A DNA stretch of 64,000 nucleotides from contig CAVUZR010000021.1 of the NCBI GenBank assembly GCA_963745855.1, forward strand, positions 851 to 64,850, written 5' to 3'. A program made the position numbers and the translations under genes. The notes beneath the pieces are model-generated. The model did not search any database. It had not been told where the DNA came from and saw nothing but the letters and a program-made list of their open reading frames with translations. Below, one piece after another: positions 18,951 to 40,332 of the stretch. Source of the DNA: an uncultured Alphaproteobacteria bacterium. Lineage in GTDB: Bacteria > Pseudomonadota > Alphaproteobacteria > Rhizobiales > Methyloligellaceae. Numbering within the stretch: position 1 is the stretch's first letter; each line of letters opens with the position of its first letter.

Positions 18951-18976
18951 GTCCGCTTTGGGTCATTAGCAGACAT
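18951..18976. repeat. REP-like element, degenerate copy
   Basis: GTCCGCTTTGGGTCATTAGCAGACAT plus downstream GTCCGC repeats. Same family as 16845, 19591 and 29436. Confidence 0.5.
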
Positions 18977-19014
18977 CGCATCACGTCCGCGTCATTGTCC
19001 GTTATTCCCCCACA

Positions 19015-23296: not shown

Positions 23297-24310
23297 ATGC
23301 ATCCTGAGCGCTTCGAGTCCTGGCTTGCTGTCGATACGCGCGGCCTCTATTGCCGGCCTGGCGGATTCCACATCGACCCGCACAGTCCGGTGAATCGCGC
23401 AGTGATCACGCACGCCCATTCCGATCACGCCCGCGCCGGCCACGATCATGTGCTCGCCACGCGCGAGACGATTGCCCTGATGAAGACGCGGCTTGGCACC
23501 GCGGCCAAGCTCGGGACGCAAACGCTGCCCTATGGCGAGACGCTGCAGGTGGGCGACGTGACGGTGACGCTCGCGCCGGCCGGCCACGTGCTCGGCAGCG
23601 CGCAAATCGTCATCGAATGGAGAGGGCGTCGCGCGGTGGTCTCAGGCGACTACAAGCGAAGCGCCGACCCGACCAATCCTCCCTTCGAGCTCGTGCCTTG
23701 CGATCTGCTTGTCACCGAGGCGACGTTCGCGCTCCCGGTGTTCAGCCATGGCGACGCGCGGGGCGAGATGGCGAAGCTGCTCAAATCGCTGAAGCAGTTT
23801 CCGGAGCGCGCGCATGTGGTCGGCGTGTATGGGCTCGGCAAATGCCAGCGCCTCATCGCGCTGTTGCGCGAGGCGGGGTACGTGGAGCCGATCTATCTGC
23901 ACGGAGCGCTTGCCGCCTGCTGCGAGGTCTATGAAAGCTTCGGGATCGAGCTCGGCGCGCTGAAGCCCGCAACCGGCGCGAAGCGCGAGGAGCTGAAGGG
24001 TGCCATCGTGTTGGCGCCCCCTTCGGCCATCGCCGAGCGATGGTCGCGGCGCATGCCGGATGCGCTCACCGCCTTTGCCTCTGGCTGGATGCGCGTCAGG
24101 GCGCGGGCACGGCAGCGCGGCGTCGAGCTTCCGCTCGTGATCTCCGACCATGCCGATTGGCGCGAGCTGACGCGGACAATTCATGAGACCGGCGCGCATG
24201 AAATATGGGTCACCCATGGGCGCGAGGACGCGCTGCTGCATCACATCCAATCCACAGGGCGCGTCGGCCGGGCGCTCGCGCTCATCGGTCGCGAGGATGA
24301 GGAGTCGTGA
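23297..24310 (+). CDS. ligase-associated DNA damage response exonuclease (metallo-beta-lactamase fold)
   Basis: ..AVITHAHSDHARAG.. motif. Its stop overlaps the ligase start (GTGA at 24307-24310). Confidence 0.75.
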   Translation: MHPERFESWLAVDTRGLYCRPGGFHIDPHSPVNRAVITHAHSDHARAGHDHVLATRETIALMKTRLGTAAKLGTQTLPYGETLQVGDVTVTLAPAGHVLGSAQIVIEWRGRRAVVSGDYKRSADPTNPPFELVPCDLLVTEATFALPVFSHGDARGEMAKLLKSLKQFPERAHVVGVYGLGKCQRLIALLREAGYVEPIYLHGALAACCEVYESFGIELGALKPATGAKREELKGAIVLAPPSAIAERWSRRMPDALTAFASGWMRVRARARQRGVELPLVISDHADWRELTRTIHETGAHEIWVTHGREDALLHHIQSTGRVGRALALIGREDEES

Positions 24311-25890
24311 AAGCGTTTTCCGAATTGCTGGACCGGCTGGCCTACACGCCGTCGCGCAACGACAAACTTCGTTTGCTCGCCGACTATTTTGCCACCACGC
24401 CCGACCCAGACCGCGGCTGGGCGCTTGCCGCCTTGACCGACGGTTTGTTCTTCCGGCTGCCGCTCCGCCGCATCTTGGGCGAGATGATCGAGGCCCGAGT
24501 CGATCCCGTGCTGTTCGGGCTCTCCCGCGACTATGTCGGCGACACCGCTGAGACAATCGCCCTGATCTGGCCTCAAGGCGACGCATCCGAGCAAGCGCCG
24601 CGGCTCGACGAGGTGGTGCAGACGCTGAAGCGCGCCATGCCGACGGAAGTGTCGGGACTGCTTGCCCAATGGCTCGATGGCCTCGACGCCACCGGGCGCT
24701 GGGCACTGCTCAAGCTCGTCACCGGGGCGCTCCGCGTCGGCATCTCGGCCCGGCTTGCCAAGACAGCGCTTGCCGAATGGTCCAAGGTCCCGCTCGCTGA
24801 CATCGAGGAGGTCTGGCACGGACTGCGTCCGCCTTATGTCGAGCTGTTCGCCTGGCTTTCCGGCGGAGGCCAGCGCCCCGAGGTCGGTGGGACGGCGACC
24901 TTCCGCCCGCTGATGCTGTCGCATCAGATCGAGGACCGGGAGCTTGCTTCGATCGCGCCTGAGGATTTCGTGGCGGAATGGAAGTGGGACGGCATCCGCG
25001 TGCAGGCCGCGCATCAAGGCGGCGAGCGGCGCCTCTACTCCCGCACCGGCGACGATATCTCCGGCGCCTTCCCCGATGTGGTCATGGGGCTGCCGCCCGG
25101 TGTGGTACTCGACGGCGAGCTGTTGGTGATGCGCGGCAGCGAGGTTGCGCCGTTCAACGATTTGCAGCAGCGGCTTAACCGCAAGACCGTAACCGCCGGC
25201 ATGCTGAAATCGCATCCGGCCCACATCCGCCTTTACGACATGCTGTTTCAGAGCGATGAGGACCTGCGCCCCCTTCCCTTCGTGGGGCGGCGCGCGCGGC
25301 TCGAAGCCTGGCATGCCAACGCAAGGCCGCCACGCACCGATGTGTCAGCTGTGCTTGACTTCAGCTCGATCGAGGAGCTCGAGCGTCTATGGGCGGGGGC
25401 GCGCGAGACCGGCATCGAAGGATTGATGTTGAAGCGCCGCGACAGCCCCTATCTTGCCGGGCGCCCGAAGGGCCATTGGTACAAATGGAAGCGGGCACCG
25501 CTCACCCTCGACGCCGTGCTGATGTACGCGCAGCGGGGCAGCGGCAAGCGCTCGTCCTATTATTCCGACTACACCTTCGGCGCCTGGCGCGAAGCGGAGA
25601 CCGGAGAGCCAGAGCTTGTTCCGGTGGGCAAATCCTATTTCGGCTTCACCGACGAGGAGCTCCGGCAGCTCGACGCTTTCGTGCGCAATCACACCGTGGA
25701 TAGTTTCGGGCCCGTGCGCCAGGTCGAGCCGAGGCTCGTGTTCGAGGTCGCGTTCGATTCGGTACATCGCTCGAGCCGACACAAATCCGGCGTCGCCATG
25801 CGTTTCCCGCGCATCCATCGTATCCGCTGGGACAAGCCTGCGGAGGAGGCCGATCGGCTTGAGACTCTCGTCGGCATGATCGTGGAGTGA
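24307..25890 (+). CDS. ATP-dependent DNA ligase (cisplatin/damage-response type)
   Basis: Adenylation motif ..AEWKWDGIRVQ.. (KxDG), ..LDGELLV.., ..EGLMLKRRDSPY.., ..KWKR.. 527 aa. Confidence 0.85.
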   Translation: MKAFSELLDRLAYTPSRNDKLRLLADYFATTPDPDRGWALAALTDGLFFRLPLRRILGEMIEARVDPVLFGLSRDYVGDTAETIALIWPQGDASEQAPRLDEVVQTLKRAMPTEVSGLLAQWLDGLDATGRWALLKLVTGALRVGISARLAKTALAEWSKVPLADIEEVWHGLRPPYVELFAWLSGGGQRPEVGGTATFRPLMLSHQIEDRELASIAPEDFVAEWKWDGIRVQAAHQGGERRLYSRTGDDISGAFPDVVMGLPPGVVLDGELLVMRGSEVAPFNDLQQRLNRKTVTAGMLKSHPAHIRLYDMLFQSDEDLRPLPFVGRRARLEAWHANARPPRTDVSAVLDFSSIEELERLWAGARETGIEGLMLKRRDSPYLAGRPKGHWYKWKRAPLTLDAVLMYAQRGSGKRSSYYSDYTFGAWREAETGEPELVPVGKSYFGFTDEELRQLDAFVRNHTVDSFGPVRQVEPRLVFEVAFDSVHRSSRHKSGVAMRFPRIHRIRWDKPAEEADRLETLVGMIVE

Positions 25891-25920: not shown

Positions 25921-27108
25921 TTGGACGACGGCTACGTCATCCAGTGGGTCCGCTCCCCAATACCTTCAAATTCCCTTGCATCCGTCTATAACCTGATCGA
26001 CGACGGCCGCCGGCGGAAGGCGCTCGGTGACGACGTAGAGATCGATATCGATGTGATCGACGAGACCAATACGGTCATCCGCTTCAACAAGCTGATCCGC
26101 CGCCTGAAAGAGGCGGACGGCGCCATGGTCGGCCTTGTCGGCGTACAGACGAACCAATTCCCCCGCGCGGTCGACATCGGTCGAAAGTTCCTCGACGCCG
26201 GTATTCAGGTCGTCATGGGCGGCTTCCATGCAGCTTGGGAGCATAGCCATGCTGCCCGAATGCCCGACGGAGATCGTCGAGGCGCAGAAACTCGGCATCG
26301 CGATCTACGCCGGCGAGGCTGAGGGCGAAATGGACGAGATTCTGCTTGCGGCATGGGCCGGCGAGTTGAAGCCGCTTTACAATCTGATGAAGGACTTGCC
26401 CGACCTCGCCAATGCGAGCGGGGGCCTATACCAGTTTTGACGCGGGACGGGGCAGCCCGTTCCAATGCTCGTTTTGCACATCATCAACGTGCAGGGACGC
26501 AAGTCGCGCCATCGCACGCCTGACGATGTCGAGGAAATTATCCGGATCAATGCCGCGCAGAATATTCAGCGGTTCTTCATCACCGACGACGACTTTGCGC
26601 GCAACAAGAACTGGGAAGCGATTCTCGACCGGCTCATCTGGCTGCGCGAGGAGCAGGGCTTCAAATTCAAGGTGACATTACAGGTCGACACGCTGTGTCA
26701 CGCCTCGACGGTTTCATCGAGAAGGCTGCGCGCGGCGGCTGTGCCCGCGTCTTCATAGGGTTGGAGAATATCGACCCTGATGCGCTCGCTTCCGCCAAAA
26801 AGCGGCAAAACAAGATCTGGGAATACCGCAAGATGCTACAGGCCTGGAAGGACGTCGGCGTGATCACATATGCCGGCTACATCCTCGGCTTTCCGAACGA
26901 CACGCCGGAGAAGATCGCCCGCCCCGCCTTGAAGCGCGTCCAAGCTGACGAGAGCGCGAGAGCGTACGCCGACCTAGCTCTGTCCCCGTCGACCGACGCC
27001 GAACAGGACGAAATGGATCTCATTCAGATGTTCAAGGGCGCGATCCCGCGAACACACGGTGCGCCGGGATTCGTCGGGAAGCCGGAACTGCGGCCGGCGC
27101 TCCCCTAA
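25921..27108 (+). pseudogene. decayed paralog of the B12-binding radical SAM gene (several frameshifts, internal deletion, cluster Cys lost)
   Basis: Fragments in at least four frames are collinear with the 17050 protein (MDDGYVIQWVRSPIPSNSLA.. / ..IAIYAGEAEGEMDEIL.. / ..FDAGRGSPFQCSFC.. / ..IINVQGRKSRHRTPDDVEE.. / ..VFIGLENIDPD..YILGFPNDTPEKIA..). About 200 aa of the C-terminal half are missing. Confidence 0.8.
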
Positions 27109-27816: not shown

Positions 27817-28218
27817 ATGGCCAATGACGCGTTCATGAAGCCTGAGGTGCCGGATGCGTTCCGCGAATTGATGAGGGTCAGCATCGAGCAAGCAAAGCGG
27901 GCGTTCGACACCTTCGCGGCGACGAGCGAGAAGACGTGGAAGACGTTCGAGACCAGCTCACAGACGGCAAGCAGCGGTTTGCGTTCGCTCAACGAGAAGA
28001 TCGCCGAGATCACCCGCAACAACGCCGAGGCGAATTTCGCCCTTGCGATGAAACTCGCGGAAAGCAAGGACGTCGGCCAGGCCATGGAGCTGCAAACCGA
28101 GCATGCGCGAAAGCAGATGGAGAGCTTCGTGCATCAGATCGAGGAGATCCGCGACCTCGCGGCGCAAGTAATCCAGGACAGCACGCCTCCCGGCATGCCT
28201 GGGGTTGGCAAGCCGTAA
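27817..28218 (+). CDS. phasin family protein
   Basis: ..AFRELMRVSIEQAKRAFDTFAATSEKTWKTFE..NAEANFALAMKLAESKDVGQAMELQTEHARKQME.. is phasin-like. GGAGAG precedes the ATG. Confidence 0.75.
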   Translation: MANDAFMKPEVPDAFRELMRVSIEQAKRAFDTFAATSEKTWKTFETSSQTASSGLRSLNEKIAEITRNNAEANFALAMKLAESKDVGQAMELQTEHARKQMESFVHQIEEIRDLAAQVIQDSTPPGMPGVGKP

Positions 28219-28245
28219 AAGCGGCCGGGCGATGTAGCTATTCGA

Positions 28246-28474
28246 TCAGGGCAGCTTGGTCGCAGGCGTGCAGATGACCTGCACTTTATTGTCCTTGTTG
28301 TCGGGATAGCACATGCTGATTTGTTCCTTGGCGTTGTCTATGACAAATACTGCGGCCCCGGGGGCGCAAAATTGATGCGGGTATATAGCCCGACGATTCG
28401 GCGTTCGCCGGCAGCGCCAACCCGGTCATGGCCATGGCGACAAGCGCCGTGGCGGCTAGTCTTCTCATACGCAT
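28246..28474 (-). pseudogene. small secreted protein, frameshifted (hypothetical)
   Basis: The signal peptide MRMRRLAATALVAMAMTGLALPANA in one frame continues as ..AAVFVIDNAKEQISMCYPDNKDNKVQVICTPATKLP in another. Confidence 0.35.
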
Positions 28475-28533
28475 AACATTCCTCCCTTGCTACACCTGTT
28501 GTTGTCTCGCCGCATTTGCTAGCACGCCAAGGA

Positions 28534-29264
28534 TCAGAGCTTCCAGCCCGGACCCGGGACGGTCTCCTGGAACGCCTTGTGCAATGCGGATCCCCACGCG
28601 TCGCGTATCGACCGAAGATAGGGATCGGACCCCTCAAGCCTGTCGGTGAAACCTGGCGACATCGAATCGCGCCGGTAGACGAGGAGATCGATCGGCGGCC
28701 CCACCGACACGTTGGAGCGCATGGTCGAATCGAAGGAGATCAGCGCGCATTTCACCGCGTCGTTTAGGCTCGTGCGTGGCTGGATGATGCGGTCGAGGAT
28801 CGGCTTGCCGTATTTCACCTCGCCGATCTGGAAATAGATCGTGTCGTCCATGGCATCGATGAAATTGCCGGCATCGTAGATCAGGAACAGCCTGAGCTGC
28901 CCAGTCTTGAGCTGCCCGGCAAGGATGAAGGAAGCGCTGAAGTCGACGTCGTGCTGCTGCAGATAGCCGCCGTCGATCTTGTGCATTTCGCGCATCGCGG
29001 TGCCGACGGCGCGCGCCGCGGCGAACATTGAGCCGATCGCCCACAAGTCTTTTTCTGGGTCGCCGGTATCGAGCCACTCGCCGAGCAGACTCATCACCCC
29101 TTGCGTCAGCGAACCGGCGGTGAGCAGGGCAAAGAAGCGTTCTCCCCGCTTCTCCAATACGTGCATCTTGCGGAAGGTGGAGACGCGGTCGATGCCGCAT
29201 TGGTGCGGGAATCGGAAGCCAGCACCAAGCCTTCATTGAGCAGAATGCCAATGCTATAGGTCAA
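28534..29264 (-). pseudogene. proteasome-type (Ntn) peptidase, frameshift near 29195
   Basis: A TTG start at 29264 after GGGGGA gives MTYSIGILLNEGLVLASDSRTNA.., and the 28534-29166 frame continues ..MHVLEKRGERFFALLTAGSL..LFLIYDAGNFI..YFQIGEVKYGKPILDR.. This family normally ends an ATP-grasp/alpha-E/transglutaminase operon. Confidence 0.7.
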
Positions 29265-29435
29265 GCCATCCCCCTATTGAGCTTGTTGTTGTTGCTGCTT
29301 GGAAACATGAGTCCGTGTGCGGCTGTCCATAGCCGTATCGTGAACCCTTTGGAAATATGGGATTTCCTCTCCGTCTGTCCGTGCTTGTCCACAGCCGATT
29401 ACGTCCGTATATTGGGGAATATTGGGCACGGAGCT

Positions 29436-29460
29436 GTCCGCTTTTGGGGGCAAAGCGGTC
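29436..29460. repeat. REP-like hairpin
   Basis: GTCCGCTTTTGGGGGCAAAGCGGTC. Related GTCCG motifs occur at 29300-29410. Confidence 0.65.
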
Positions 29461-29571
29461 GCAGAATGTTGCTGTGATAAGAGTGCGCTAGTGACCCAAG
29501 GCGGACATCATTCCCATCCTGAATGCCAGGGCCAAGCCGACAAGTATCTCGTCGTTTGAGGGGACGGCGCG

Positions 29572-30754
29572 TCAGCGGAAGGCCAGGGGGTCTAATGCTC
29601 GGGCCCCCACAACCCGAATTCGCTCGAATACAAAGATCTTGTCTTCTCGCGGTGACTCCCAATCAAGAAACTGGGGCTCTTGGTTTACGATCTTCAAGCC
29701 CAAGCAGGAAATGACGAGTAATCCGCCATCTGGCGAAAATTTTGCCCCATGTGGTGCGGCATTGCCGAGGTTTACGGTTTGAACTGGATTTCTGAATTTT
29801 GGGTCCTGGGTCAAACTATATAGAGAAAAGGAGTGATTGATTAAATCTGTAATGACGCATGTACCGTCAAGTATATCTATGTTTTCTAGTCGACAGAAAT
29901 CTTTCTGCACGAGGATTCGTTCAGGACTACGAGCAATTTCACCTTCGGCATTTATTGAGAATATGGCTATTCCATTTTTTGTTGGCATTCTATCTTGGGG
30001 GTTAGGTTTTTCTAATTCAACGGATTTCTTTCTGCGATCTCTCATCAGCGTTTTGCTAAAGGATTGACCTTTTTTAAAAATTTTCGTTCTAAGCTTATTA
30101 ATAGCTTTATAAGACAATTTCATCAATTTATCTGAAACAGGCAAGCTCTTTGTCTGATGTAAATGATAAGATACCTTTCCAAGAATGGATAACTGCTTGT
30201 TAGATTCAAACGTTACCAAAATTTTGGTGCCGTCGGCATTGAAACATATCCCTTTGCAGTCCCCGTACTCTGAAAACCAGGATTTCAGTCTTATCCAGGG
30301 GGCCGGTGATTTTGCCCGTTTCTTCGTTGAATCCGTAGGAAACGATCGCCCCACTTGGCGCAAGGTTCTCGCAGTAAGTGATGACCAATCTGCCGTCCCG
30401 CATCGCCAAAGTATGGGGCTCGCGAAGGTGATCGAATGGGCTTTGGAAGAATTGTATCGGTTTTGTTATCGTCTCGCCATTTCGGTAAACATTTATGGTA
30501 CCGGGCTTTTTAAGATTGTGAGCATTCGAAACCAGAAGGTATTTTTTAGTGAACAATACTCCGTGTGGACTATCAAATTGTGACTCAGGATTCCTTAATA
30601 CCTGCAACAACTTTCGAGTTCGCGAATCATAAATTCGAACCTCATTGATGCTTTCGTAGGTGGCTGCGAAATAAGACCCGGACGGGTGAAACGAAACCTC
30701 ACCGACCATACTGGGCGCCCCGTCGTTCTCTATAATCTCAGCGATGCGATACAT
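29572..30754 (-). pseudogene. beta-propeller (lactonase/YncE-like) repeat protein, frameshift near 30300-30360
   Basis: Recurrent blade signatures: ..FHPSGSYFAAT..VRIYD, ..PHGVLFTKKYLLVSN, ..PHTLAMRDGRLVIT, ..KGICFNADGTKILVT, ..PHGAKFSPDGGLLVIS. This is the most AT-rich gene in the window, and two ORFs (30206-30793, 29572-30363) overlap in different frames. Confidence 0.6.
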
Positions 30755-31067
30755 TGAAGGAACCCCCTGGTCCCAGAGTTTACATCGTCGCAACGGCTCA
30801 ACCAGTGCTCATTTATGAGTACACGCCCGAGGGCGTCATTCGCTGTTCGGCTCCGCGCCGGGGATCTCGATCTTGGGCTTCTTGCGCAACGTTGAGCAGG
30901 ACGCTTCGGCCGTCGCCCATATGCGCAGTGCTCTTAAAGGCTATCCCCAAAATCTTGAGGTTTTCTGTCTCCTTCGCCCAAGGACTTGCGCTCCCCACTT
31001 GTGCTAGTACCGCGCGTGGGGTATCCAAGTACCACATGGAGAGCGCTGAGAACAGGGCTGCATCAGT

Positions 31068-31387
31068 ATGATTGGCAGACCATTTCAGCCCGGCAAATCG
31101 GGGAATCCGGGCGGCAGACCTCGAACAGTCCACAGCCTCCAGGAGCTTGCGCGCAAGCACATGATCGAAGCCCTCGACGTGCTTGTCCAATCATGCTGAA
31201 CGAAAAAGCGCCGCCGAATGCCCGTGTTGCTGCCGCTAATACCCTGCTTGACCGCGCCTATGGCAAAGCACCCACGTTTAGCACCTCGGACACCCAAGCC
31301 TTTAAACGGGCCATCGACATGACCGACGATGAGCTAGCTGCCATCGTGGGTGGGGCCAAGCTTACCCTAGTAAAATCAGACATTTAG
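31068..31387 (+). pseudogene. DUF5681-type phage protein, frameshift near 31190
   Basis: MIGRPFQPGKSGNPGGRPRTVHSLQELARKHMIEALDVLVQ.. stops at 31199. It continues in the next frame as ..MLNEKAPPNARVAAANTLLDRAYGKAPTF..DMTDDELAAIV.. Confidence 0.6.
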
Positions 31388-31399
31388 TCCCCTATCCTT

Positions 31400-31522
31400 C
31401 TATGTTCTCTCGCTGGAGGGGTTCTCAGGGACCAGGATAGATCGGTCTAGGTTAACGCGAACAATCCTGGCGCGCGTCTCGCAGCGCTCGATAGCCGCCA
31501 GGAGGTAGTAGCGCTCGCTCAT
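31400..31522 (-). CDS. mini-ORF (40 aa), ATGA-coupled to the upstream 52-aa ORF
   Basis: MSERYYLLAAIERCETRARIVRVNLDRSILVPENPSSERT. Its start overlaps the stop of the 31519-31677 ORF. Confidence 0.2.
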   Translation of the reverse strand: MSERYYLLAAIERCETRARIVRVNLDRSILVPENPSSERT

Positions 31523-31677
31523 TGCTTGCCCTGCATGAACTCAATGCGGTCAAGCTCGGCGTCGACGAACTTCTGGACGGCATCGGTCGGGGCGCCGCTG
31601 CGGATCAGCGAAGCGGCCAGCTTATTGAGTGCGTCGATCTTCGCTGCGTGCGTCTTTGTCACATCGGCTTCGTTCAT
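31519..31677 (-). CDS. small hypothetical protein (52 aa)
   Basis: MNEADVTKTHAAKIDALNKLAASLIRSGAPTDAVQKFVDAELDRIEFMQGKQ. GGGAG lies 7 nt upstream of the ATG. It is too short to appear in the supplied ORF track. Confidence 0.35.
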   Translation of the reverse strand: MNEADVTKTHAAKIDALNKLAASLIRSGAPTDAVQKFVDAELDRIEFMQGKQ

Positions 31678-31976
31678 GATTTGCTCCCGAAATACTTGTC
31701 CATCGGATCAGTGGACTGAGGCTTGACCTCCAGGGCTGCCCGCGCGCTCGGCGTGAGCCCCAGCAAGGTCGCATTAGTGAGCTGCGTCTCATGACGCCAT
31801 GCGAATGATGCCGAGCAAGGGGTTAACAGATGGCCCACCGCGCTTGTTTTGGATGGCAAACACGAGGGTGCCAGTGGCGGCGGCACGTACACGTCCGAGA
31901 ATTTGACCGACACCGTCGCAGGCGGCAGATACAAGGGCTCCTAATCGCGAGGAGAAGTGGCGGAGCGATAACGTCC

Positions 31977-32069
31977 CTAGAGTATCCCGGTCGTGATTAA
32001 ACCAACCAGGACGAACGAGAACACGCAGAACAGCTTGAACGCCAACCCATCTGCCTCCTGCTTAGTCAT
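31977..32069 (-). CDS. 30-aa hydrophobic peptide (hypothetical)
   Basis: MTKQEADGLAFKLFCVFSFVLVGLITTGIL. AGGAGG lies about 9 nt upstream. Confidence 0.3.
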   Translation of the reverse strand: MTKQEADGLAFKLFCVFSFVLVGLITTGIL

Positions 32070-32840
32070 CGGGGTAACCCTCCTCATTCCCTAGTGCCCC
32101 AGCCGACTTCGATGCGGCTGTTGGACCTTAACCCCGATGATCGCCTGCGCGTTCCCCTGCTGCCGTCTGTTTCGACTGTTGGCCTCCACCACCGGCGCTA
32201 TCAGTTCTCAGGCCTCTGTGGCAGTTCGGCAACCAATTCCGACCCATAATATGGTTGCATTATAGGGTTGACGCCTTGCCGGTACGGCAAGTGACCGTCG
32301 GAGTGGGTGATTAGTCTGGTATCGCGTACAACCCCCGCAAGGTCGAGCGCAGGAAGCACCGATCATCCTCTAAATATAGAATTCGACTTGCGCCCCAAAT
32401 CTAGTCACCGGGCCGCAAGCCGAGGATAACACCTTACCCTGCCTTGGGCCGCGAACCCCTCCGAACGGCTCTTTTCTTGCTTATCCGCCGCTGCAAGGCG
32501 ACGACTATCCCCACACGGCCTTGGGCAGAAGCGCAACAACGTTTCAGACTTTATTACAAGTTTAGCGATCACAACGAGGGATGCGCTCTGTTGGGATTAG
32601 CTTCTGTGTTTGGGTAGCGAGGATAGCCCTAATCGTCTTCTTTGACTCGCTCGCAGATCCGGCGGTGGGCGTTGCCGCAGTCGCTGCGCTCCTCGCTGGG
32701 ATAATTTGGCTGCCCAATGAGAGGCACTCGCAATGGCCAAACGCGAGACTTGAGTTTAAGCAACCTGGATAACTGGCGGGCCGCTTTACCGGTGCGGATG
32801 ATGAGTAGACCGGCTAGGTAAACCCATAGGTAACGAGACC

Positions 32841-32965
32841 AGGTTCAATTCGCGGCCAGGATCAACGCAAATGCTGTTGGCGGGGGGAGATTGCTCCAAC
32901 AGTAAACGGGACTCCCTAGAAAACGGGTTGCGCCACAGAAAAAGGGACTCCGATGTTGGAGGGAT
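32841..32965 (+). repeat. direct repeat, copy 1 (contains a 41-nt insert relative to copy 2)
   Basis: aggttcaattcgcggccaggatcaacgcaaatgctg..ggggag...cgccacagaaaaagggactccgatgttggagggat. Confidence 0.7.
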
Positions 32966-33178
32966 GCAGTGATGTCGCCGCGATCTGCCGCAGTTCGAAA
33001 AGCAAGTCATACGTCTGCTCCAGCTGCTCCTGGTCTTGGGCCGGGCGCGTCTGGTCCATAAGCGAAAGCTCAATGTGAGCCCCGCTGCCGATCTAGCAGG
33101 GTGATAAACGCCTCCAATTGGCTGATGGCCGGGTTCATCGTTGCCAGATGCCTCACCAGGCCGCTAATTGAACAGACA

Positions 33179-33265
33179 AGGTTCATTCGCAGCCAAAATC
33201 AACACAAATGCTGATGACGGGGGAGTCCCGCGCCACAGAAAAAGGGACTCCGATGTTGGAGGGAT
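33179..33265 (+). repeat. direct repeat, copy 2
   Basis: aggttcattcgcagccaaaatcaacacaaatgctg..ggggagtcccgcgccacagaaaaagggactccgatgttggagggat. The last 35 nt are identical to copy 1. Confidence 0.7.
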
Positions 33266-33379
33266 CTTTCCCGAAGTATACGAATTTGTATAAGCCCGAA
33301 CACCAAACTCCCCCTTTTAAATCAAAGTGGCGCTCCATGTTCTCCCGCACTCTTACGAGCGACAAGCTGGGGGATCACA

Positions 33380-34348
33380 ATGGGAGCAGGGAGTGGCAAG
33401 AGCGATAAGTGCGGCGCCGGTCCAATAACCTCCGTTACGCTGTGTGTATGCACCCATCGCCGCCCCGGGTTTTTTAGCCAATTCACGCGCTCGCTTGAGA
33501 CCTTGATCGTTCCTTCGGTAGTGACGTTCCATCTTAGCGTTAGCGACAACAATATCGTTAGCCATTATGAATTATACATCAGGGACCTCCTGGAAAGGCT
33601 GCCGTTCGCCTCTTCCTATGGACATGAGCCTGCTCCCGGTTATTCGAATGCACGCAATAGGGCCCTTGAGCTTGCGCTGAAAACGCCGGCAGAACTACTT
33701 GCCTTCGTTGATGATGACATGACGGTTGCCCCGACCTGGCTGCTCGGACATCTGCGCAGTCATGAGGAATTTGCTTGCGATGTCGTCGGTGGAGCGATCC
33801 ACGGCCACCGCAGCCGGTACAACACCGGCCGCCGTTTTGCACACGGCGAAGAGCGACCCACTATCGGCACATCGAATGTTTCGTTCAAGCGTTGGATTGT
33901 GGCCGACGATGGATTGCGTTTGCTATTTGACCCTCGTTTCAATGCAAGCGGGGGTGAGGACAAGGACTTCTTTTCTTCGGCTCATCGGAAAGGCGCAAGG
34001 ATTGTTGTTAGCAGCTATCCGATCGTCCACGACTCGACTGCGAACCAGGTTGCGACCCTGTGGAATAAAGCCCAAGTCTCTTCAATCATGCACAGGGATC
34101 GGATTGTAAGGCTACGGAAAGAGGTTGGCTTTTTCGCCGGATTTGCCAGTGCGATTTGGGGGGTACGCTTCGGCATAAAATCGCTCCCGGTCTTTCTTGA
34201 TTATCGCGCTAGTCTCCTATTTAAGAACGCTGATCGAGCGTTACGGAAGCAAATTTCCGCATATAAGAATTTTCATAAGATGGTTCAGGGCTTCAATGGA
34301 CTGCGTGGCGATTATATAGCTCGTCATGAAGTGCGGCGGAGCTTCTAA
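33380..34348 (+). CDS. family 2 glycosyltransferase
   Basis: ..VTLCVCTHRRPGFF.., ..GYSNARNRALE.., ..LAFVDDDMTVAPTWL.., ..GGEDKDFF.. are GT2 hallmarks. Confidence 0.7.
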   Translation: MGAGSGKSDKCGAGPITSVTLCVCTHRRPGFFSQFTRSLETLIVPSVVTFHLSVSDNNIVSHYELYIRDLLERLPFASSYGHEPAPGYSNARNRALELALKTPAELLAFVDDDMTVAPTWLLGHLRSHEEFACDVVGGAIHGHRSRYNTGRRFAHGEERPTIGTSNVSFKRWIVADDGLRLLFDPRFNASGGEDKDFFSSAHRKGARIVVSSYPIVHDSTANQVATLWNKAQVSSIMHRDRIVRLRKEVGFFAGFASAIWGVRFGIKSLPVFLDYRASLLFKNADRALRKQISAYKNFHKMVQGFNGLRGDYIARHEVRRSF

Positions 34349-34548
34349 ACGGCTGGCCCTTTCCCGCGCTGAGTTCAAAAAAGCGACGTAATCAAGTGGT
34401 CACACGCTTTTGATCAGCGCCCGCGGCGCGCGGCCATGCTTTTTAGGGGCGCAAAAAATGTCCGGTCTCAAGGGAAGGGTTGCCCAACGCATAACCTCAT
34501 CGCTTTTTTTCTCAGCCCATTAGTGACCTCGGCAATTCCAAGGCTTAC

Positions 34549-34735
34549 GTGGTTTTTTTGCCCCTCATCGGTATAACATTGATCTTGTCAGCTTTGAGCA
34601 ATGGCAGTGGATTGCGCGAACTCCTGACCCCAAGTGCCTCTTGGACCCCTTTTTTCCTGCTCGCGCTCTACCTGTTTTTCAACGCGACATGGGCCGCAGA
34701 CCAACCTGCCGCGCTCGGTGCGGCGAGCCTATGCA
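34549..34735 (+). pseudogene. O-antigen ligase/polymerase-like membrane protein, N-terminal fragment (tentative)
   Basis: ..FFLLALYLFFNATWAADQPAALG.. resembles the first membrane segments of O-antigen ligase family proteins. The reading frame then runs into antisense ATP-grasp sequence. Confidence 0.3.
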
Positions 34736-35047
34736 CCCGCGCTTCACGAGCTCCCACTCGGCGCGATCCAGGATGCGTGGGATGAGATCGAAGGGGATCA
34801 GCCGCTCGGTCGAGCCGCCTTCGGCATAGACGGCGAAGGTGATGCCGAGCCGCCGGAACAGCTCCTCGGCGGCGACCTGCTTGGTGACCAGGGATTCGAT
34901 GGAGAGATCGTCAAGCAGCCCGGCGAAGTCGGCATAGGCGGGCCTCACGTTGCCGTCGGGGCTGCGCATTTCATCAAAAAATCGGCGGGACGGTGCTGGC
35001 GCCTCGCGCACCCGCGCTTCCGCTATCTCAGAACTTCGCAAGTCCAC
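34735..35047 (-). pseudogene. circularly permuted type 2 ATP-grasp protein, N-terminal roughly 105 aa only
   Basis: ..FDEMRSPDGNVRPAYADFAGLL..AAEELFRRLGITFAVYAEGGSTERLIPFDLIPRILDRAEWELVKRG.. then unrelated residues and a stop. Confidence 0.65.
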
Positions 35048-35191
35048 CCTGTCCGGTTCTCGTGAGCGACCTCTACTCCCGCCTGGGTGCGCTTCCGTTT
35101 TATGCTATGGCATCATTTTATGCCTATGCCGTTTGGATAGGCAACGTTTTTACAAGCCTATTTCCTGAGCAACACTCGCGCCATCGATTAC

Positions 35192-35833
35192 ATGTTCGAA
35201 ACCTTCCTCACGGCCTTCACCACCTTCTTTGCAGTGATCGGTCCCATCGATTCTGCGGTGCTGCTCACCACGCTTACGCCCAACGCGACGAAGGAGGAGC
35301 GTCGGGCGATCTCGCTGAAAGCCGTGGCCATCGCCACGTTGATCGTGCTCGTCTTCGCCCTGTTTGGGCAACCGATCCTCCATCAGCTAGGCGTCTCGCT
35401 GCCGGCGCTCCAGGTTGCCGGCGGCATCATCCTGCTGATGATCGCCCTCGACATGACCCTGTCGAAGCGCCCGTCGCAGGCCAAGCTCACGGTGAAAGAA
35501 AGCGAAGAGGCGGAGAGCAGAGCGGAGCAGCACGCCGAGATCACCGTGTTTCCACTCGCCACGCCGCTGCTTGCCGGGCCGGGCGCCATGACGTCAGCCA
35601 TCGTGCTCGCCGCCGGCACCCACGGCGACCCTAAGCTGCTCGTCGCCGTGGTGCTGGCAATTCTCGCGGTCATGCTGGTGACGCTCATCTTTCTGCTGCT
35701 CGCGCAGGAGATCCACTATCTGATCGGGCTCACGGCGCGGAAGGTGATCGTGCGCGTGTTCGGCGTGCTGCTCGCGGCCATTGCCGTGCAGTCGATCTTC
35801 AACGGCATCGCCGCCGCTCATATCTTTCGCTGA
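35192..35833 (+). CDS. marC: MarC family (UPF0056) membrane protein
   Basis: MFETFLTAFTTFFAVIGPIDSAVL.. with six hydrophobic segments, 213 aa. Confidence 0.75.
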   Translation: MFETFLTAFTTFFAVIGPIDSAVLLTTLTPNATKEERRAISLKAVAIATLIVLVFALFGQPILHQLGVSLPALQVAGGIILLMIALDMTLSKRPSQAKLTVKESEEAESRAEQHAEITVFPLATPLLAGPGAMTSAIVLAAGTHGDPKLLVAVVLAILAVMLVTLIFLLLAQEIHYLIGLTARKVIVRVFGVLLAAIAVQSIFNGIAAAHIFR

Positions 35834-35857
35834 GGCCACAATCGCAGGAGGTAGGTC

Positions 35858-36862
35858 ATGCGTGCTGTACAGGTATTGAAGCCCGGGTCGCCGCTCGAGC
35901 TTGTGGAGCGGCCGATGCCGGAGCCGGGTCCCGGCAAGGTGCGCGTCAAGGTGGAGGCTTGCGGCATATGCCACAGCGATTCCTTCACGGTCGAGGGCCA
36001 CTACCCCGGCATCCTCTATCCGAGAGTGCCGGGCCACGAGATCGCGGGCCATGTCGATGCGCTCGGGCCAGGGGTCACGGCCTGGCGCGTGGGGCAGCGC
36101 GTCGGCGTCGGCTGGCATGGCGGTCATTGCGGGGTGTGCGCCAATTGCCGACGGGGCGATTTCGTCCTCTGCGTCGTCATGCAGGTGCCGGGCATCGCCT
36201 ATGACGGCGGCTATGCCGACTACATGATCGCGCCCCAAGAAGCACTTGCCGCCATCCCTGACGACCTTACCGCGATAGAGGCGGCACCGTTGCTCTGCGC
36301 CGGCATCACCACCTTCAATTCGCTCCGCAATTCGGGCGCGGGCCCGGGCGATCTCGTGGCGATCCTCGGCATCGGCGGCCTCGGCCATCTCGGCGTGCAA
36401 TTCGCGGTAAAGATGGGCTTCAACACCGTCGCCATCGCGCGCGGCCCCGACAAGGCCAAGCTCGCGCTCGAGCTCGGCGCCCATCGTTATATCGACAGTG
36501 AAGCGGAAGATGCGGCCAAGGTGCTCGCCGGGCTTGGCGGCGCCAAGGTGATCCTTGCCACGGTGACCAACGCCAAGGCGATGAGCGCGCTGATCGAGGG
36601 CCTCGGGGTCGACGGCAAATTGCTGGTGGTGGGGGTGTCGCCGGAGCCGATCGGGGTCTCGCCCCTTCAGCTCATCGGCAAGCGGCGCTCGGTGGCAGGC
36701 TGGCCATCAGGTCGCGCCTCGGATTCGGAGGACACCATGCGCTTCAGCGCCCTTGAAGGTATTCGGCCGATGATCGAGATCGTCCCGCTCACAGAAGCTG
36801 CAAAGGGATATGCGCGGATGATGAAGGGCGATGCGCGCTTCCGCGTCGTCCTCGTCCCGTGA
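35858..36862 (+). CDS. zinc-dependent alcohol dehydrogenase
   Basis: ..ACGICHSD.., ..GHEIAG.., structural-zinc cysteines (..GHCGVCANCRRGDFVLC..) and the NAD fold ..ILGIGGLGHLGVQFA.. Confidence 0.85.
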   Translation: MRAVQVLKPGSPLELVERPMPEPGPGKVRVKVEACGICHSDSFTVEGHYPGILYPRVPGHEIAGHVDALGPGVTAWRVGQRVGVGWHGGHCGVCANCRRGDFVLCVVMQVPGIAYDGGYADYMIAPQEALAAIPDDLTAIEAAPLLCAGITTFNSLRNSGAGPGDLVAILGIGGLGHLGVQFAVKMGFNTVAIARGPDKAKLALELGAHRYIDSEAEDAAKVLAGLGGAKVILATVTNAKAMSALIEGLGVDGKLLVVGVSPEPIGVSPLQLIGKRRSVAGWPSGRASDSEDTMRFSALEGIRPMIEIVPLTEAAKGYARMMKGDARFRVVLVP

Positions 36863-37138
36863 CTACGAGCGGTTGCCGCCAAACAGATGGCCGGCAAGAA
36901 GCCGCAAATAGGAACCGCCGGTCTCGCCCAGGCATAGTTTAGATTGACCTTGGCGGCGCCGGGTGAAGGTGATCGGCACTTCGATGACGCGTATGCGTTT
37001 CGCAAGCGCGAGCAGCTACTGAAAGGCGTAGCCGTTATTCTGCAGACGCTTGTAGATCTCCTCGATGTTGCCGGCCTAGTCCATGGCGGCGGCGACGACG
37101 ACGTGCCGCCGCGAGCCCTCGGCCGACGCAAGTGTCAT
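36863..37138 (-). pseudogene. Dpm1-like GT2 glycosyltransferase remnant with two in-frame TAG codons
   Basis: MTLASAEGSRRHVVVAAAMD*AGNIEEIYKRLQNNGYAFQ*LLALAKRIRVIEVPITFTRRRQGQSKL.. It is far too short for the family, and its ATG overlaps the RND gene stop. Confidence 0.5.
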
Positions 37139-40100
37139 TCAGCGTGGACCGGCTCGGAACTTGGATAGGCCTTCGGCTTCGCCGCGAATTTGCGCACCAC
37201 CACGTAAAACACCGGCGTGAAGATCAGGCCGAAGACGGTGACGCCGATCATGCCGAAAAACACCGCGGTGCCCAGCGACTGGCGCATCTCGGCACCCGCG
37301 CCGGTGGCGATGACGAGCGGCAACACGCCGAGGATGAAGGCGAAGGAGGTCATGAGGATCGGGCGCAAGCGCACGCGCGCGGCCTCCGTCGCCGCCTGGA
37401 AGCGATCCTCGCCATGCTCCTCGTTCTGGCGCGCGAACTCCACGATCAGGATGGCGTTTTTCGCCGCCAAGCCAATAAGCACGACGAAACCGATCTGAGC
37501 GAGGATGTTTACGTCCATGCCACGAAGTAGGAGGCCGCTGATGGCGGCGAGCAAACACATGGGCACGATCAGAATGACGGCGAGCGGCAGCGACCAGCTC
37601 TCGTATTGCGCGGAGAGCAGCAGAAACACGAACACCACCGAGGCGCCGAACACATAGATCGCGGTGTTGCCGGCGAGCTGTTCCTGATAGGCGATTTCAG
37701 TCCAGGCCGCCGCATAGCCCTCCGGCAAGACCTGCTGGGCAATCTTGTCCATGGCGGCGAGCCCGTAGCCGGTGGAGAAGCCGGGCGCGGTGCCACCCTG
37801 CACGGCGGCGGACGGAAACAGGTTGAAATGCTCGACGCGATAGGGCCCGGTGATGTCGCGGAAGGACGCCACGGAGCCGAGGGGCACCATCTCGCCATTG
37901 GCGTTGCGCGTCTTAAGCTGCGAGATATCGTGCAGGTCCTGGCGAAACCTGCCGTCGGCTTGTGCCGTGACGCGGTAGGTACGGCCGAGGAAATTGAAGT
38001 CGTTCACATATTGGGAGCCGAGATAGACTTCGAGCGTGGTGAAGACGTCATCGGCCTTGACCCCTAGCATCTCGGCGCGGATGCGATCGATATCCGCCCA
38101 GACCTTGGGCGTCCGCGTGTTGAAGGTGGTGAACACACTCACGAGCCCCGGAGTCTGATTGGCGGCCGCCATGACGCCCTGTGCCACCCCTTCGAGCTCC
38201 GACAGTTCGCCGCCATGGGTGTCCTGCACCTCAAGCTTGAACCCGCCGGTGGTGCCGATGCCGCGCACCGGCGGCGGCGACACGCTGATAACCAGCGCGT
38301 CCTGGATCGCGGCGAATTTCTGGTTGAGCAGGACGCTGATCTTCTGCGCGGTCAGTCCGTCCTTGGCGCGCTCGTCGAACGCCTTGAGCGGCGAAAAGAT
38401 CACGGCTGAATTTGGCGCGTTGGTAAAGGTAGCGCCGTCCAACCCCACGATCGGCACGGTATGGGCGACCCCCGGCGTGTCCAGCACCAGCTTGTTGACG
38501 CGCCGCGCCAGCTCGTCAGTGCGGGCGAGCGAGGCTCCGGGCGGCAGCTGGACGATGTTGATGAGGTAGCCCTGATCCTGCTGCGGGATGAAACCGGTTG
38601 GCGCCCGGCTGAACTCGAAGATGGTGAGGCCGATCAGACCGGCATAGACCATCACCATGATCAAGGACACGCGCACAAGACGACCGGTCAGCTTGCCATA
38701 ACGGAAGGACAGCCATTCGAAGGCGCGATTGAAACCCCGGAAGAAGGCGTTGATCGGCCGGACGAAAATGTTCTGGCGTTGCGGATGCGGCTCGTGCGGC
38801 TTGAATAGGAGCGCGCAGAGCGCTGGGCTCAGAGTGAGCGAGACGATGAGCGAGATGACGGTCGAGGTGGCGATGGTGACGGCGAACTGACGGAAGAACT
38901 GGCCGAGAATGCCGGTGAGAAAGACCGACGGGATGAACACCGCCGTCAGCACGAGGGCGATCGCGACTAGCGCGCCGCCAACCTCTTCCATGGTCTTGTA
39001 GGCGGCGTCGCGCGGGCTCAAGCCTTCGCGAATGTTTCGCTCCACGTTCTCGACCACGACGATTGCGTCGTCGACCACGATGCCAATAGCGAGAAGCAAA
39101 CCGAACAGGGAGAGATTGTTGAGCGAGTAGCCCAGCGCCGACAGCATGGCAAAAGTGCCGATCAACGATACCGGGATGGCGACGATCGGCACGATCGAGG
39201 CGCGCCACGTCTGCAAGAACAGGATGATCACCACCACGACGAGGACCACGGCCTCGAACATGGTGTGGATCACCGCCTCCACCGATTGCGAAATGAAGAC
39301 CGTCGGATTGTAGACGATGTCGTATTTGAGGCCGGCGGGAAAGGACTCCGACAGCTTCTTCATGGTCGCCTGGACTTGGGCCGCGGTAGCGAGCGCGTTC
39401 GAGCCGGGACGCTGGAAGATACCGAGCGGCACCGCCACCCTCTCGTCGAGATAGCCATTGCGGCCGTAATCGGCGGCGCCAAGCTCCACCCTGCCGATAT
39501 CGCGGATGCGGACCACGCGCCCGTCGCTGCCCGACTTGACGATGATGTTGCCGAACTGCTCCGGATCGGTGAGCCGCCCTAGCGTTTCGACGTTGTATTG
39601 GAAGGCGCCTGGTTGCGGCACCGGCGGCTGGTTGGTCACGCCGGCGGCGACTTGCACGTTCTGCCCTCGGAGCGCGGCGACCACGTCACCGGCGGTCAGG
39701 TTGCGCATGGCGAGCTTCTCCGGATCGAGCCAGATGCGCATCGAATAATCGCGCGCGCCGAAGATGGTGACGTTGCCGACGCCGTCGATGCGCGACAGCA
39801 CGTCCTTCACGTGCAAGGTCGCGTAGTTGGAGATGTAGAGTTGGTCGCGCATGCCGTCTGGCGAAAACAGGTGGATCACCAGCATCAGGTCCGGCGACTG
39901 TTTAGTCACCGTCACGCCGATGTTGCGCACCTCCTCCGGCAGCCGCGGCTGGGCGACGGCGACGCGGTTTTGCACCAGCACCTGCGCGGTATCGAGATCA
40001 GTGCCGAGCTTGAAGGTGACCGTTAGCGACATGTTGCCGTCGCCGGTCGACTGCGACGTCATATAGAGCATGTTGTCGACGCCGTTGACCTCCTGCTCAA

Positions 40101-40332
40101 TCGGAGTTGCCACGGTCTTGGCCACGATCTCGGCGGAGGCGCCCGGATATTGCGTGGTGACCGAGATCGACGGCGGCGCGATGTCCGGGTACTGGGCGAC
40201 GGGCAGCGCGAAATAGGCAACGCCGCCGATCAGCGTGATGATGATGGAGATGACCGCGGCGAAGATCGGCCGGTCGATGAAGAAATGCGAAATGTTGGTG
40301 GGGCGATCGCCCTGAGGCGTGCTGTCGGTCAT
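37135..40332 (-). CDS. RND efflux transporter permease (AcrB/HAE1 family)
   Basis: 1065 aa. N-terminus ..ISHFFIDRPIFAAVISIIITLIGGVAYFALPVAQYPDIAPP.. with twelve-TM architecture. Confidence 0.9.
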   Translation of the reverse strand: MTDSTPQGDRPTNISHFFIDRPIFAAVISIIITLIGGVAYFALPVAQYPDIAPPSISVTTQYPGASAEIVAKTVATPIEQEVNGVDNMLYMTSQSTGDGNMSLTVTFKLGTDLDTAQVLVQNRVAVAQPRLPEEVRNIGVTVTKQSPDLMLVIHLFSPDGMRDQLYISNYATLHVKDVLSRIDGVGNVTIFGARDYSMRIWLDPEKLAMRNLTAGDVVAALRGQNVQVAAGVTNQPPVPQPGAFQYNVETLGRLTDPEQFGNIIVKSGSDGRVVRIRDIGRVELGAADYGRNGYLDERVAVPLGIFQRPGSNALATAAQVQATMKKLSESFPAGLKYDIVYNPTVFISQSVEAVIHTMFEAVVLVVVVIILFLQTWRASIVPIVAIPVSLIGTFAMLSALGYSLNNLSLFGLLLAIGIVVDDAIVVVENVERNIREGLSPRDAAYKTMEEVGGALVAIALVLTAVFIPSVFLTGILGQFFRQFAVTIATSTVISLIVSLTLSPALCALLFKPHEPHPQRQNIFVRPINAFFRGFNRAFEWLSFRYGKLTGRLVRVSLIMVMVYAGLIGLTIFEFSRAPTGFIPQQDQGYLINIVQLPPGASLARTDELARRVNKLVLDTPGVAHTVPIVGLDGATFTNAPNSAVIFSPLKAFDERAKDGLTAQKISVLLNQKFAAIQDALVISVSPPPVRGIGTTGGFKLEVQDTHGGELSELEGVAQGVMAAANQTPGLVSVFTTFNTRTPKVWADIDRIRAEMLGVKADDVFTTLEVYLGSQYVNDFNFLGRTYRVTAQADGRFRQDLHDISQLKTRNANGEMVPLGSVASFRDITGPYRVEHFNLFPSAAVQGGTAPGFSTGYGLAAMDKIAQQVLPEGYAAAWTEIAYQEQLAGNTAIYVFGASVVFVFLLLSAQYESWSLPLAVILIVPMCLLAAISGLLLRGMDVNILAQIGFVVLIGLAAKNAILIVEFARQNEEHGEDRFQAATEAARVRLRPILMTSFAFILGVLPLVIATGAGAEMRQSLGTAVFFGMIGVTVFGLIFTPVFYVVVRKFAAKPKAYPSSEPVHAE

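Follow-up and report, generated by a model that had tools for sequence, protein, structure and literature searches.

How did an operon of four genes come to be represented by its two broken ends, with foreign DNA between them? This question is raised by a 64,000-nucleotide (nt) stretch of DNA, called the window in the following, which covers positions 851-64,850 (forward strand) of contig CAVUZR010000021.1 in assembly GCA_963745855.1, from an uncultured alphaproteobacterium of the Methyloligellaceae. The operon is that of the proteasome-like peptidase Anbu. Our analysis suggests that the locus is a scar left by two steps, the insertion of a genomic island and a later deletion that took the core of the operon, and that the orphaned Anbu gene is decaying; we give this reading a probability of about 0.82. 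The window has a GC content of 60%, and its closest relatives are soil metagenome-assembled genomes (MAGs) labelled Methyloceanibacter or uncultured Alphaproteobacteria; the host is a soil Methyloceanibacter-like alphaproteobacterium, and the stretch was found in more than 20 public soil metagenome runs.

The Anbu operon consists of Anbu and the genes of a COG2308 ATP-grasp, a COG2307 Alpha-E and a COG1305 transglutaminase protein (Valas & Bourne 2008, PMC3235984; Fuchs et al. 2017, PMC5666114; also Iyer et al. 2009, as cited on the operon by PMC5666114). Anbu has been lost many times, and the operon is non-essential without stress (PMC3235984; PMC5666114). The operon is induced under nitrogen limitation in Pseudomonas putida (PMC3235984), and what Anbu does physiologically, and how far it depends on the ATP-grasp, Alpha-E and transglutaminase proteins, is still to be settled (PMC5666114). 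Among the raw open reading frames (ORFs) on the minus strand of the window, a pair at 28534-29264 encodes the peptidase and one at 34679-35047 the N-terminus of a circularly permuted ATP-grasp. When one missing G is restored, the former region encodes a 245-amino-acid (aa) protein that matches the Anbu chains 5NYJ, 5NYF, 5NYW, 5LOX and 5LOY of the PDB with E-values of 1e-54 to 2e-84, and hence the peptidase is Anbu and the operon is the known Anbu operon. The remains of the operon and the DNA between them are as follows.

28534 to 29264, minus strand: Anbu pseudogene (proteasome-like peptidase); one G is missing behind 29196 and the frame shifts at codon 24.
29274 to 29308, minus strand: 3' remnant of the transglutaminase gene (COG1305, PF01841), the last 12 codons and the stop (at 29274), found by alignment to relatives.
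29309 to 34730, no strand: island remnant, 5,422 bp, absent in at least 13 relatives and present in all same-species contigs.
34731 to 35047, minus strand: 5' stub of the ATP-grasp gene, 105 codons from a GTG at 35047; the homology to relatives and to the sister allele described below starts exactly at 34731.

We compared 80 loci around relatives of the peptidase with the window between 20 and 45 kb (loci and contigs carry L numbers here). The four-gene order is kept in about 70 of them, e.g. in L002 with a 490-aa CP_ATPgrasp_2 protein, Alpha-E and Transglut_core followed by the Proteasome-type peptidase, with Pfam scores of 537 bits for CP_ATPgrasp_2 and 245 bits for Alpha-E. The flanking genes (MarC, ADH, RND pump, phasin and ligase) are common to the relatives, which puts these loci in the same place on the chromosome. 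In at least 13 relatives the homology to the window descends from the side of RND pump, ADH and MarC to 34731 and restarts at about 29308. At base level the alignment breaks at 29308/29309 and at 34730/34731, and the foreign stretch is thus 29309-34730, 5,422 bp long. Between the same points the relatives hold about 2.9 kb with the rest of the CP_ATPgrasp_2 gene, Alpha-E and Transglut_core. Full-length ATP-grasp proteins (COG2308, PF14403) in relatives have 464-490 aa and score 537-545 bits; the copy in the window is truncated, and it has no Pfam score because the domain starts only at residue 90 of the full-length proteins. The Alpha-E gene (COG2307, PF04168) is present in the relatives and in the sister allele and absent at the window locus, where it falls within the deleted stretch. 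At sites free of the island, i.e. in L001-L006, L081 and most other loci, the gap between the transglutaminase and Anbu genes is tens of nt.

An earlier note, made from the letters of this DNA alone, had described much of this end state correctly. It claimed an AT-richer insert of about 5.4 kb in the place of the operon core, which we measure at 5,422 bp with a GC content of 53.2% vs 60.4% and 62.2% in the flanks; an ATP-grasp gene that starts at 35047 and breaks off after about 105 residues, which it does at 34731; and a missing ATP-grasp/Alpha-E/transglutaminase core, which the synteny of the relatives recovers. The peptidase gene that it placed at 29264 is present, and what the note missed is that this is Anbu and already a pseudogene. 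Its idea that foreign DNA had replaced the core holds for the end state and fails as a single replacement, since other contigs (L281-L283, L290) hold the island beside an intact core. The mechanism, which it called not evident, has become evident from the same contigs: island insertion followed by a blunt 4,325-bp deletion.

The window and many of the relatives are long-read metagenome assemblies, in which indel errors are frequent (e.g. an extra base at 30283), and we therefore looked at how far other assemblies support the two junctions. In exact look-ups of the GT2, beta-propeller, MarC and phasin proteins the window arrangement recurs in four contigs of the European Nucleotide Archive (ENA) of 51-283 kb, and it is also seen in Illumina SPAdes and NCBI MAG contigs, at 97.7-99.8% identity to the window. 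Logan contigs span 29308/29309 in four runs and 34730/34731 in two of those four; the latter junction is also spanned by the Illumina SPAdes contigs L094 and L284, by the NCBI MAG contig L285 and by four long ENA contigs. Since independent Illumina, Logan and long-read contigs cross both junctions, misassembly is excluded at the contig level, and the chimeric junction against which the earlier note had cautioned was not seen.

Further contigs show a second form of the locus. We call the deleted form found in the window allele A, and the form with the island and an intact core allele B. Three contigs of allele B, L281, L282 and L283, encode an identical MarC and are 99.2-99.7% identical to the window over 34731-43834, and their homology to it ends exactly at 34731. 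The core in these contigs is intact, with ATP-grasp (464 aa), Alpha-E and transglutaminase (270 aa). The transglutaminase gene of allele B ends with ...ATGTTTCCAAGCCAGCAACAATGA, and the next ~290 nt are DNA resembling repetitive extragenic palindromes (REP), with no Anbu. L275 overlaps this ~290-nt DNA at 96-100% identity, and connects, within one contig, the window segment 34343-34730 to a complete Wzy_C gene and to the 3' end of the transglutaminase gene. One contig of 18 kb, L290, which shares its sample with an allele-A contig, has the complete layout, in the order ligase, radical SAM, phasin, intact Anbu, repeat, island, repeat, transglutaminase, Alpha-E and ATP-grasp. This layout indicates that the island was inserted at the 3' end of the transglutaminase gene and that the core was still intact after its arrival. 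L290 also has three internal deletions of its own, corresponding to 29878-30912, 32212-32924 and 825 bp within Wzy.

Both alleles occur together in at least four soil metagenomes, as judged from Logan contigs, and ERZ25039552 likewise yielded an allele-A contig (contig_42970) and an allele-B contig (contig_42967). In three runs, contigs of the intact ATP-grasp gene ending on the 30-mer 34731-34760 have a depth of 5.5-6.4 vs 2.7-11.4 for the window form. As the intermediate and the derived allele co-exist in the same soils, the order of events can be read directly and does not have to be inferred.

The two alleles are one deletion apart. A composite of allele B (L275 390-1796 plus L281 248-3165) exceeds the window by 4,325 bp. 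At the left breakpoint allele B reads ...GCGAGCCT/TTTTTTGG and at the right one ...CCGCTGG/ATGCACCC, while the window reads ...GCGAGCCT/ATGCACCC; the junction is blunt and shows no microhomology. The deletion runs from codon ~60 of the island gene Wzy to codon ~106 of ATP-grasp, so that ~1.4 kb of the island and the 2.9-kb core are gone. Lost were the 3' part of Wzy, a spacer of ~290 nt, the repeat copy next to the transglutaminase gene, both transglutaminase and Alpha-E, and everything in ATP-grasp past codon 105. A deletion is the only sensible direction, because restoring the 4,325 bp mends two genes and recreates the gene order of the relatives. The deletion scar is 34730/34731 only; the junction at 29308 is the old integration junction and is shared with L007. 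We consider it highly probable that insertion came before deletion. Compared with L002 and L081, the core of allele B shows 88% and 87% identity, as vertical descent would lead one to expect. Relocation of the core to another place by inversion or translocation is unsupported, as the ATP-grasp contigs crossing the breakpoint and allele B keep the core in its original place.

How the island arrived is suggested by its ends. In L290 it is flanked by a direct repeat of 20/21 nt, TTGTTGCT(G)GCTTGGAAACAT, with the copy TTGTTGCTGCTTGGAAACAT on the Anbu side (window 29289-29308) and the copy TTGTTGCTGGCTTGGAAACAT on the transglutaminase side. L290, L281, L282 and L275 have the second copy where the island meets the transglutaminase gene, and in relatives free of the island there is a single copy. 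The whole 64-kb window has one match to the 12-mer GCTTGGAAACAT; in L290 there are exactly two, one per island end. Moreover, the transglutaminase gene now ends at a new stop codon provided by the island. The Anbu-side copy at 29289-29308 would thus be an attR-like site, and the segment next to it is the following.

29309 to 29428, no strand: island segment beside the attR-like copy, shared with L007, with the doubled motif CCCAATAT.

L007 (contig CAWHAX010000011.1), whose flanks are ~84% identical to those of the window, shares the Anbu-side junction with it to the nucleotide, and 120 homologous nt lie behind that junction. Its alignment runs across the junction to 29428, and a 34-nt block with the doubled CCCAATAT is 85% identical, so that 29309-29428 may be the remnant of an att arm. 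The island of L007 is at least 13 kb long and has a DUF5681 gene (91% identical), the ~105-nt element described below and a remnant of a P27-type small terminase; L175, 3 kb further along the L007 contig, is unrelated. Taken together, these features make it fairly probable that the island arrived by site-specific integration into the 3' end of a gene.

We also observed a second DUF5681 remnant in the window, at 6959-7240 on the plus strand, of which only the C-terminal part is left (...RAYGKAPTFNTNDSGTFKRAVDMTDDELAAIV). It lies ~215 nt from the 3' end of tRNA-His (7455-7531, minus strand), and looks like another scar of a DUF5681-bearing integrative element.

The Anbu gene itself is inactivated in most strains with allele A. 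The window shares the frameshift at codon 24 with seven independent contigs (ENA contig_20284, ENA contig_23567, L293, L178, L292, L294 and Logan X1-X3), and the shift is real since Illumina contigs carry it too. Those contigs with the frameshifted Anbu that reach the far junction always have the deleted allele. Anbu is intact in L277/L288 (one contig of the deleted allele), in L177 and in L290, the contig with the intact core. In L093/L280 (ENA ERZ25039606 contig_10147) a 1,303-bp deletion, equivalent to window 28099-29401 and with 2 nt of microhomology, has taken the phasin 3' end, the whole Anbu gene and the Anbu-side junction. The left flank of L093 is 96.3% identical to the window and the right flank 99.2%, and this unequal divergence suggests recombination at the locus. 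The decay of Anbu would fit relaxed selection on an orphaned gene. We made no use of another Anbu frameshift, at codon ~68 in L007 and L006, because both are long-read MAGs, one of them with an intact operon, and the shift may be an assembly error.

We propose the following course of events. A foreign element, of ~6.8 kb in its present state, entered the last codons of the transglutaminase gene and parted Anbu from its three partners, as the structure of L290 displays; the flanking repeat and the replacement stop codon are the signature of a phage or island integrase, which would since have been lost. Afterwards the island turned into a mosaic of DUF5681, the ~105-nt element, the beta-propeller gene and the GT2 and Wzy genes of the polysaccharide-cluster type. 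In one sublineage the single blunt deletion of 4,325 bp then led from the arrangement of allele B to the window allele, which the contigs show. Finally, Anbu has been inactivated by a frameshift in most strains of the deleted allele and lost in one, which would be the decay of an orphaned gene.

Several points weigh against this proposal. No integrase or recombinase was found among the island ORFs in scans against Pfam, PHROGs and NCBIfam, as the earlier note had also reported from reading the ORFs, and no integrase was found in the readable 13 kb of the L007 island. Scans of IMG/VR with exact patterns (core, junction and arm block) gave no match for an attP or excised form, exact matching being insensitive. 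The repeat includes a CAA-rich stretch that derives from poly-Gln codons, with its 12-nt unique part being exact. L007 and the window may represent one ancestral integration or independent hits by related elements. L274 is 99.5% identical to window 32808-34730 and then runs into Wzy, and to the left of 32808 it differs. The length of ~6.8 kb for the undeleted island is a composite estimate, because no single contig holds the full-length island (L290 and L274 are both altered). The material throughout consists of metagenome assemblies. Lastly, the statement that Anbu decays once its partners are gone stands on two inactivating events, one frameshift and one deletion.

Some of these points would also fit an island that arrived by illegitimate or transpositional insertion, or that was imported together with its flanks by homologous recombination, with the 20/21-nt repeat being incidental. 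Neither an integrase nor an attP form is at hand, the repeat is partly made of low-complexity CAA codons, and the divergence of L093 across the locus (96.3% vs 99.2%) is what recombination would leave. However, both ends of the island coincide with the exact 12-nt unique part of the repeat, a lineage ~16% divergent with a homologous island end has the junction at the same nucleotide, and the phage-type DUF5681 remnants in the island as well as the second DUF5681 scar beside tRNA-His also speak for an integrating element. We regard such an arrival as unlikely.

From the window alone, with its two junctions and no recombinase, one could equally propose that the foreign DNA was swapped for the core in one step, by a double crossover or an illegitimate event. 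This is contradicted by L290 and by L275 plus L281, unless those contigs are chimeric: the same island stands next to the intact core in strains 99.2-99.7% identical and one deletion away, and the 4,325 bp restore Wzy as well. A one-step replacement is thus very improbable. The reversed direction, with the window form being ancestral in the species and the intact core re-acquired as a 4.3-kb piece, is hardly credible; there is no direct evidence for it, although the deleted form is commoner among the long contigs retrieved, and the acquired 4.3 kb would have to restore Wzy and ATP-grasp together, in frame and in the order of the relatives, with a core whose identity to L002 and L081 (88% and 87%) is at the level of vertical descent. 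An assembly artefact with one or both junctions being chimeric, for which the indel-prone long-read metagenome assemblies (e.g. the extra base at 30283) might be blamed, can practically be discarded since Logan, Illumina SPAdes, NCBI MAG and long ENA contigs cross both junctions.

The two-step scar can be compared with known systems. The relatives and the sister allele have exactly the four-gene Anbu operon in the described order, whereas the window has a remnant with a frameshifted Anbu, 105 ATP-grasp codons and 12 transglutaminase codons, which is no longer a working member. Temperate and cryptic prophages are known to integrate at the 3' ends of protein genes and to rebuild the end, as phage 21 and e14 do in the icd gene of E. 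coli. The island resembles them in its insertion in the last codons, the target duplicated at both ends, the replacement stop codon and the reuse of the site in a second lineage. It differs in that neither an integrase, nor an excisionase, nor an excised form was found, in that its sole phage-type gene is DUF5681, and in that its cargo is mostly of the polysaccharide-cluster type. Defective (grounded) prophages and islands erode by deletions that may reach into neighbouring genes. Sibling strains are similar to this in their several independent deletions, of 4,325 bp in the window and of 1,303 bp in L093 with three more in L290, and in the mosaic of single-gene modules; there is no essential difference, although here the intermediate and derived alleles happen to share the same soils.

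The locus adds a new case to well-known processes, i.e. island integration, prophage decay and operon loss, acting on a known operon, and belongs to ordinary genome dynamics. It provides a clean worked example of an integration, a blunt deletion into the adjoining operon and the decay of an orphan gene, and it shows that two lineages have used the 3' end of the transglutaminase gene as a site of integration. The locus also has a modest value for Anbu biology, as natural strains with different sets of surviving operon genes, and no other difference, could be compared, e.g. under nitrogen limitation. It also brings to notice a highly conserved ~105-nt element linked to DUF5681 genes. A wider reading, which we find doubtful when all its parts are taken jointly, is that the island is what remains of an element from an undescribed family of integrative, phage-like elements that carry DUF5681, occur in soil Hyphomicrobiales and target the transglutaminase 3' end and, judging by the scar at 6959-7240, tRNA-His; that the ~105-nt element, 5-13x over-represented in soil metagenome contigs, is a functional site (att, pac or operator); and, separately, that the allele series might be the first genetic evidence of the dependence of Anbu on its partners. 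The series behind this last part is operon split, core deleted, Anbu frameshifted and Anbu deleted.

The composition of the insert sets it apart from its surroundings. Between the two stubs the GC content falls to 37-55%, and the GC content at third codon positions is 0.42-0.56 in the insert genes vs 0.80-0.85. The windowed GC and k-mer profile that the earlier note had proposed agrees with this, as the tetranucleotide distance has its maximum over the window at 29.0-31.5 kb. On the raw ORFs of the insert, Pfam recognizes GT2 only; to identify the other genes, frameshifts had to be corrected or a structure modelled. The features inside the island are listed here.

29436 to 29460, plus strand: REP-like hairpin, GTCCGCTTTTGGGGGCAAAGCGGTC.
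29572 to 30754, minus strand: beta-propeller gene, GC 44%, 393 aa once the extra base at 30283 is removed.
31068 to 31387, plus strand: DUF5681 phage-type gene, frameshifted near 31188.
31400 to 31677, minus strand: two mini-ORFs (40 and 52 aa) that overlap; the gene calls of all sibling contigs include them.
32836 to 32965, plus strand: first copy of the non-coding element, ~105-130 nt, with the repeat families D1 and D2.
33152 to 33265, plus strand: second copy of the non-coding element; the 3'-terminal 36 nt are identical in both copies.
33380 to 34348, plus strand: GT2 glycosyltransferase gene, 322 aa, intact; PF00535 with 26.5 bits.
34549 to 34730, plus strand: 5' stub of a Wzy_C gene (O-antigen ligase/polymerase family), ~60 codons, ended by the deletion.

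Most of the genes that the earlier note had named in the insert could be identified. Its very AT-rich beta-propeller gene has only sub-threshold Pfam matches; the AlphaFold2 model has a predicted local distance difference test score (pLDDT) of 81 and a predicted template modelling score (pTM) of 0.79, and nearly all of the top 50 Foldseek matches are 7-bladed WD40-type propellers, with E-values of ~1e-10 and a probability of 1.0. The predicted structure thus confirms a beta-propeller fold (WD40/YncE-like) for this low-GC gene. Only the window sequence has the extra base at 30283; all four metagenomes compared lack it, and the identical 393-aa protein (P0001) is present in public assemblies. 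A homologue in L181 is 82% identical and lies inside a polysaccharide gene cluster, with the sharing limited to the ORF.

The DUF5681 gene likewise stands, since once read through the frameshift it scores 36.7 bits with PF18932 (cut-off 27.5) and matches phrog_15261 with an E-value of 3e-14. It has relatives in 282 IMG/VR contigs, and in Acetobacter phage phiAX1 a homologue is immediately followed by a 448-aa ORF and the portal and coat genes, a position which by its neighbours is that of the small terminase. Illumina-based contigs differ from the window by single bases at 30283 and at 31188. At the latter, high-depth copies have an extra A that restores DUF5681, and the single local low-depth contig agrees with the window. 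As a further observation, the 3' half of the gene (31204-31470) has a contig depth of 120-220x vs ~10x, which indicates many diverged copies of the gene in these soils. The two mini-ORFs of 40 and 52 aa have no match in Pfam, PHROGs or NCBIfam.

The GT2 gene of the earlier note is a PF00535 protein. Its module, 33266-34359, has a 92% identical counterpart in L264 and an 86% identical one in L262, and the flanking DNA is unrelated in both cases. The O-antigen-ligase-like stub was also named rightly, because near-identical contigs extend it into a Wzy_C gene: L274, L275 and L276 run past 34730 into the full Wzy gene, which scores 45 bits with PF04932 (Wzy_C). Judged from these matches, the island is decaying and is pieced together from single-gene modules with other neighbours elsewhere. 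The GT2 and beta-propeller genes are probably functional cargo acting on surface polysaccharide, and nothing at the locus works as a system.

Of the REP hairpins that the earlier note placed in the insert, one lies there (29436-29460); the second copy, which has 2 mismatches, lies outside at 16845-16869, and 0 such matches are expected by chance. REP-like intergenic repeats form a family in the host genome, as seen at window 16844-16921, 18949-19010 and 45730-45773, and the same family brackets the GT2 module on both sides in L264 (1009-1210 and 2634-2742).

The direct repeat that the earlier note had described with a spacing of ~340 nt is real, with spacings of 337 and 300 nt, and corresponds to the non-coding element. 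The core of this ~105-nt element, ...GAACAGACAAGGTTCATTCGCGGCCAGGATCAACGCAAATGCTG...ACAGAAAACGGGACTCCG, is highly conserved at the DNA level, and we take it to be non-coding because its variable sites lack a 3-nt periodicity in an alignment read by eye. Outside the window, copies are present in L007 (9328-9406) and in nine contigs from the Joint Genome Institute (JGI; L265-L273), with unrelated flanks. The element often lies directly 3' of the DUF5681 end (L007, L265 and L266) or before a C-terminal DUF5681 fragment (L270 and L271). Contigs of the element have a depth of 50-130x vs ~10x for the genome in four soil metagenomes, and an exact-sequence search of the GTDB representative genomes and IMG/VR gave no matches.

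Two candidates for the nature of the element were rejected. For a structured RNA, there is no Rfam match, the window region 28000-36000 having no relevant one at E<=1, and the RNAalifold consensus of ten copies has -7 kcal/mol and 0 compensatory pairs. For an integron-like cassette array with the 105-130-nt repeats as attC sites, no IntI, symmetric hairpin or covariation was found. The arrangement does resemble clusters of attC sites lacking an integron integrase (CALIN) and integrons in that repeats of ~105-130 nt bound short modules, and the GT2 module begins right after one copy. It differs from them in that the element lacks the symmetric R''/R' hairpin of attC, the copies in the window differ in internal structure, and the consensus fold is weak.

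Two other forms of the operon were noted among the relatives. In Methyloceanibacter sp. CWP6-1.bin.95 (L088/L009) the same operon has been eroded independently by two internal deletions, and what is left beside MarC is Anbu, a piece of ~430 nt from the transglutaminase gene and an Alpha-E fragment of 135 nt. L286 (JGI 3300079545) has a third arrangement, in which homology begins at window 35185 and the right flank is 97.4% identical; upstream of MarC, the DNA shows no relation to allele A or allele B, and holds a partial ORF of 185 aa without a Pfam family.

Elsewhere in the window, a pair of genes at 23288-25890, for a metallo-beta-lactamase-fold protein and an ATP-dependent DNA ligase (DNA_ligase_A_M/C), lies ~9 kb from the blunt scar, with no demonstrated link to it. 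At 25921-27108, a paralogue of the B12-binding radical-SAM genes is split into at least four ORFs, with 169 nt missing at 25923/25924. The gene is intact in L288 and L290 (425 aa), and an intact paralogue lies in the window at 17050-18825; the broken copy may be a pseudogene or partly an error of long-read assembly. Finally, the window and L092, which are 99.75% identical, differ by a 295-bp indel at 43681-43976.

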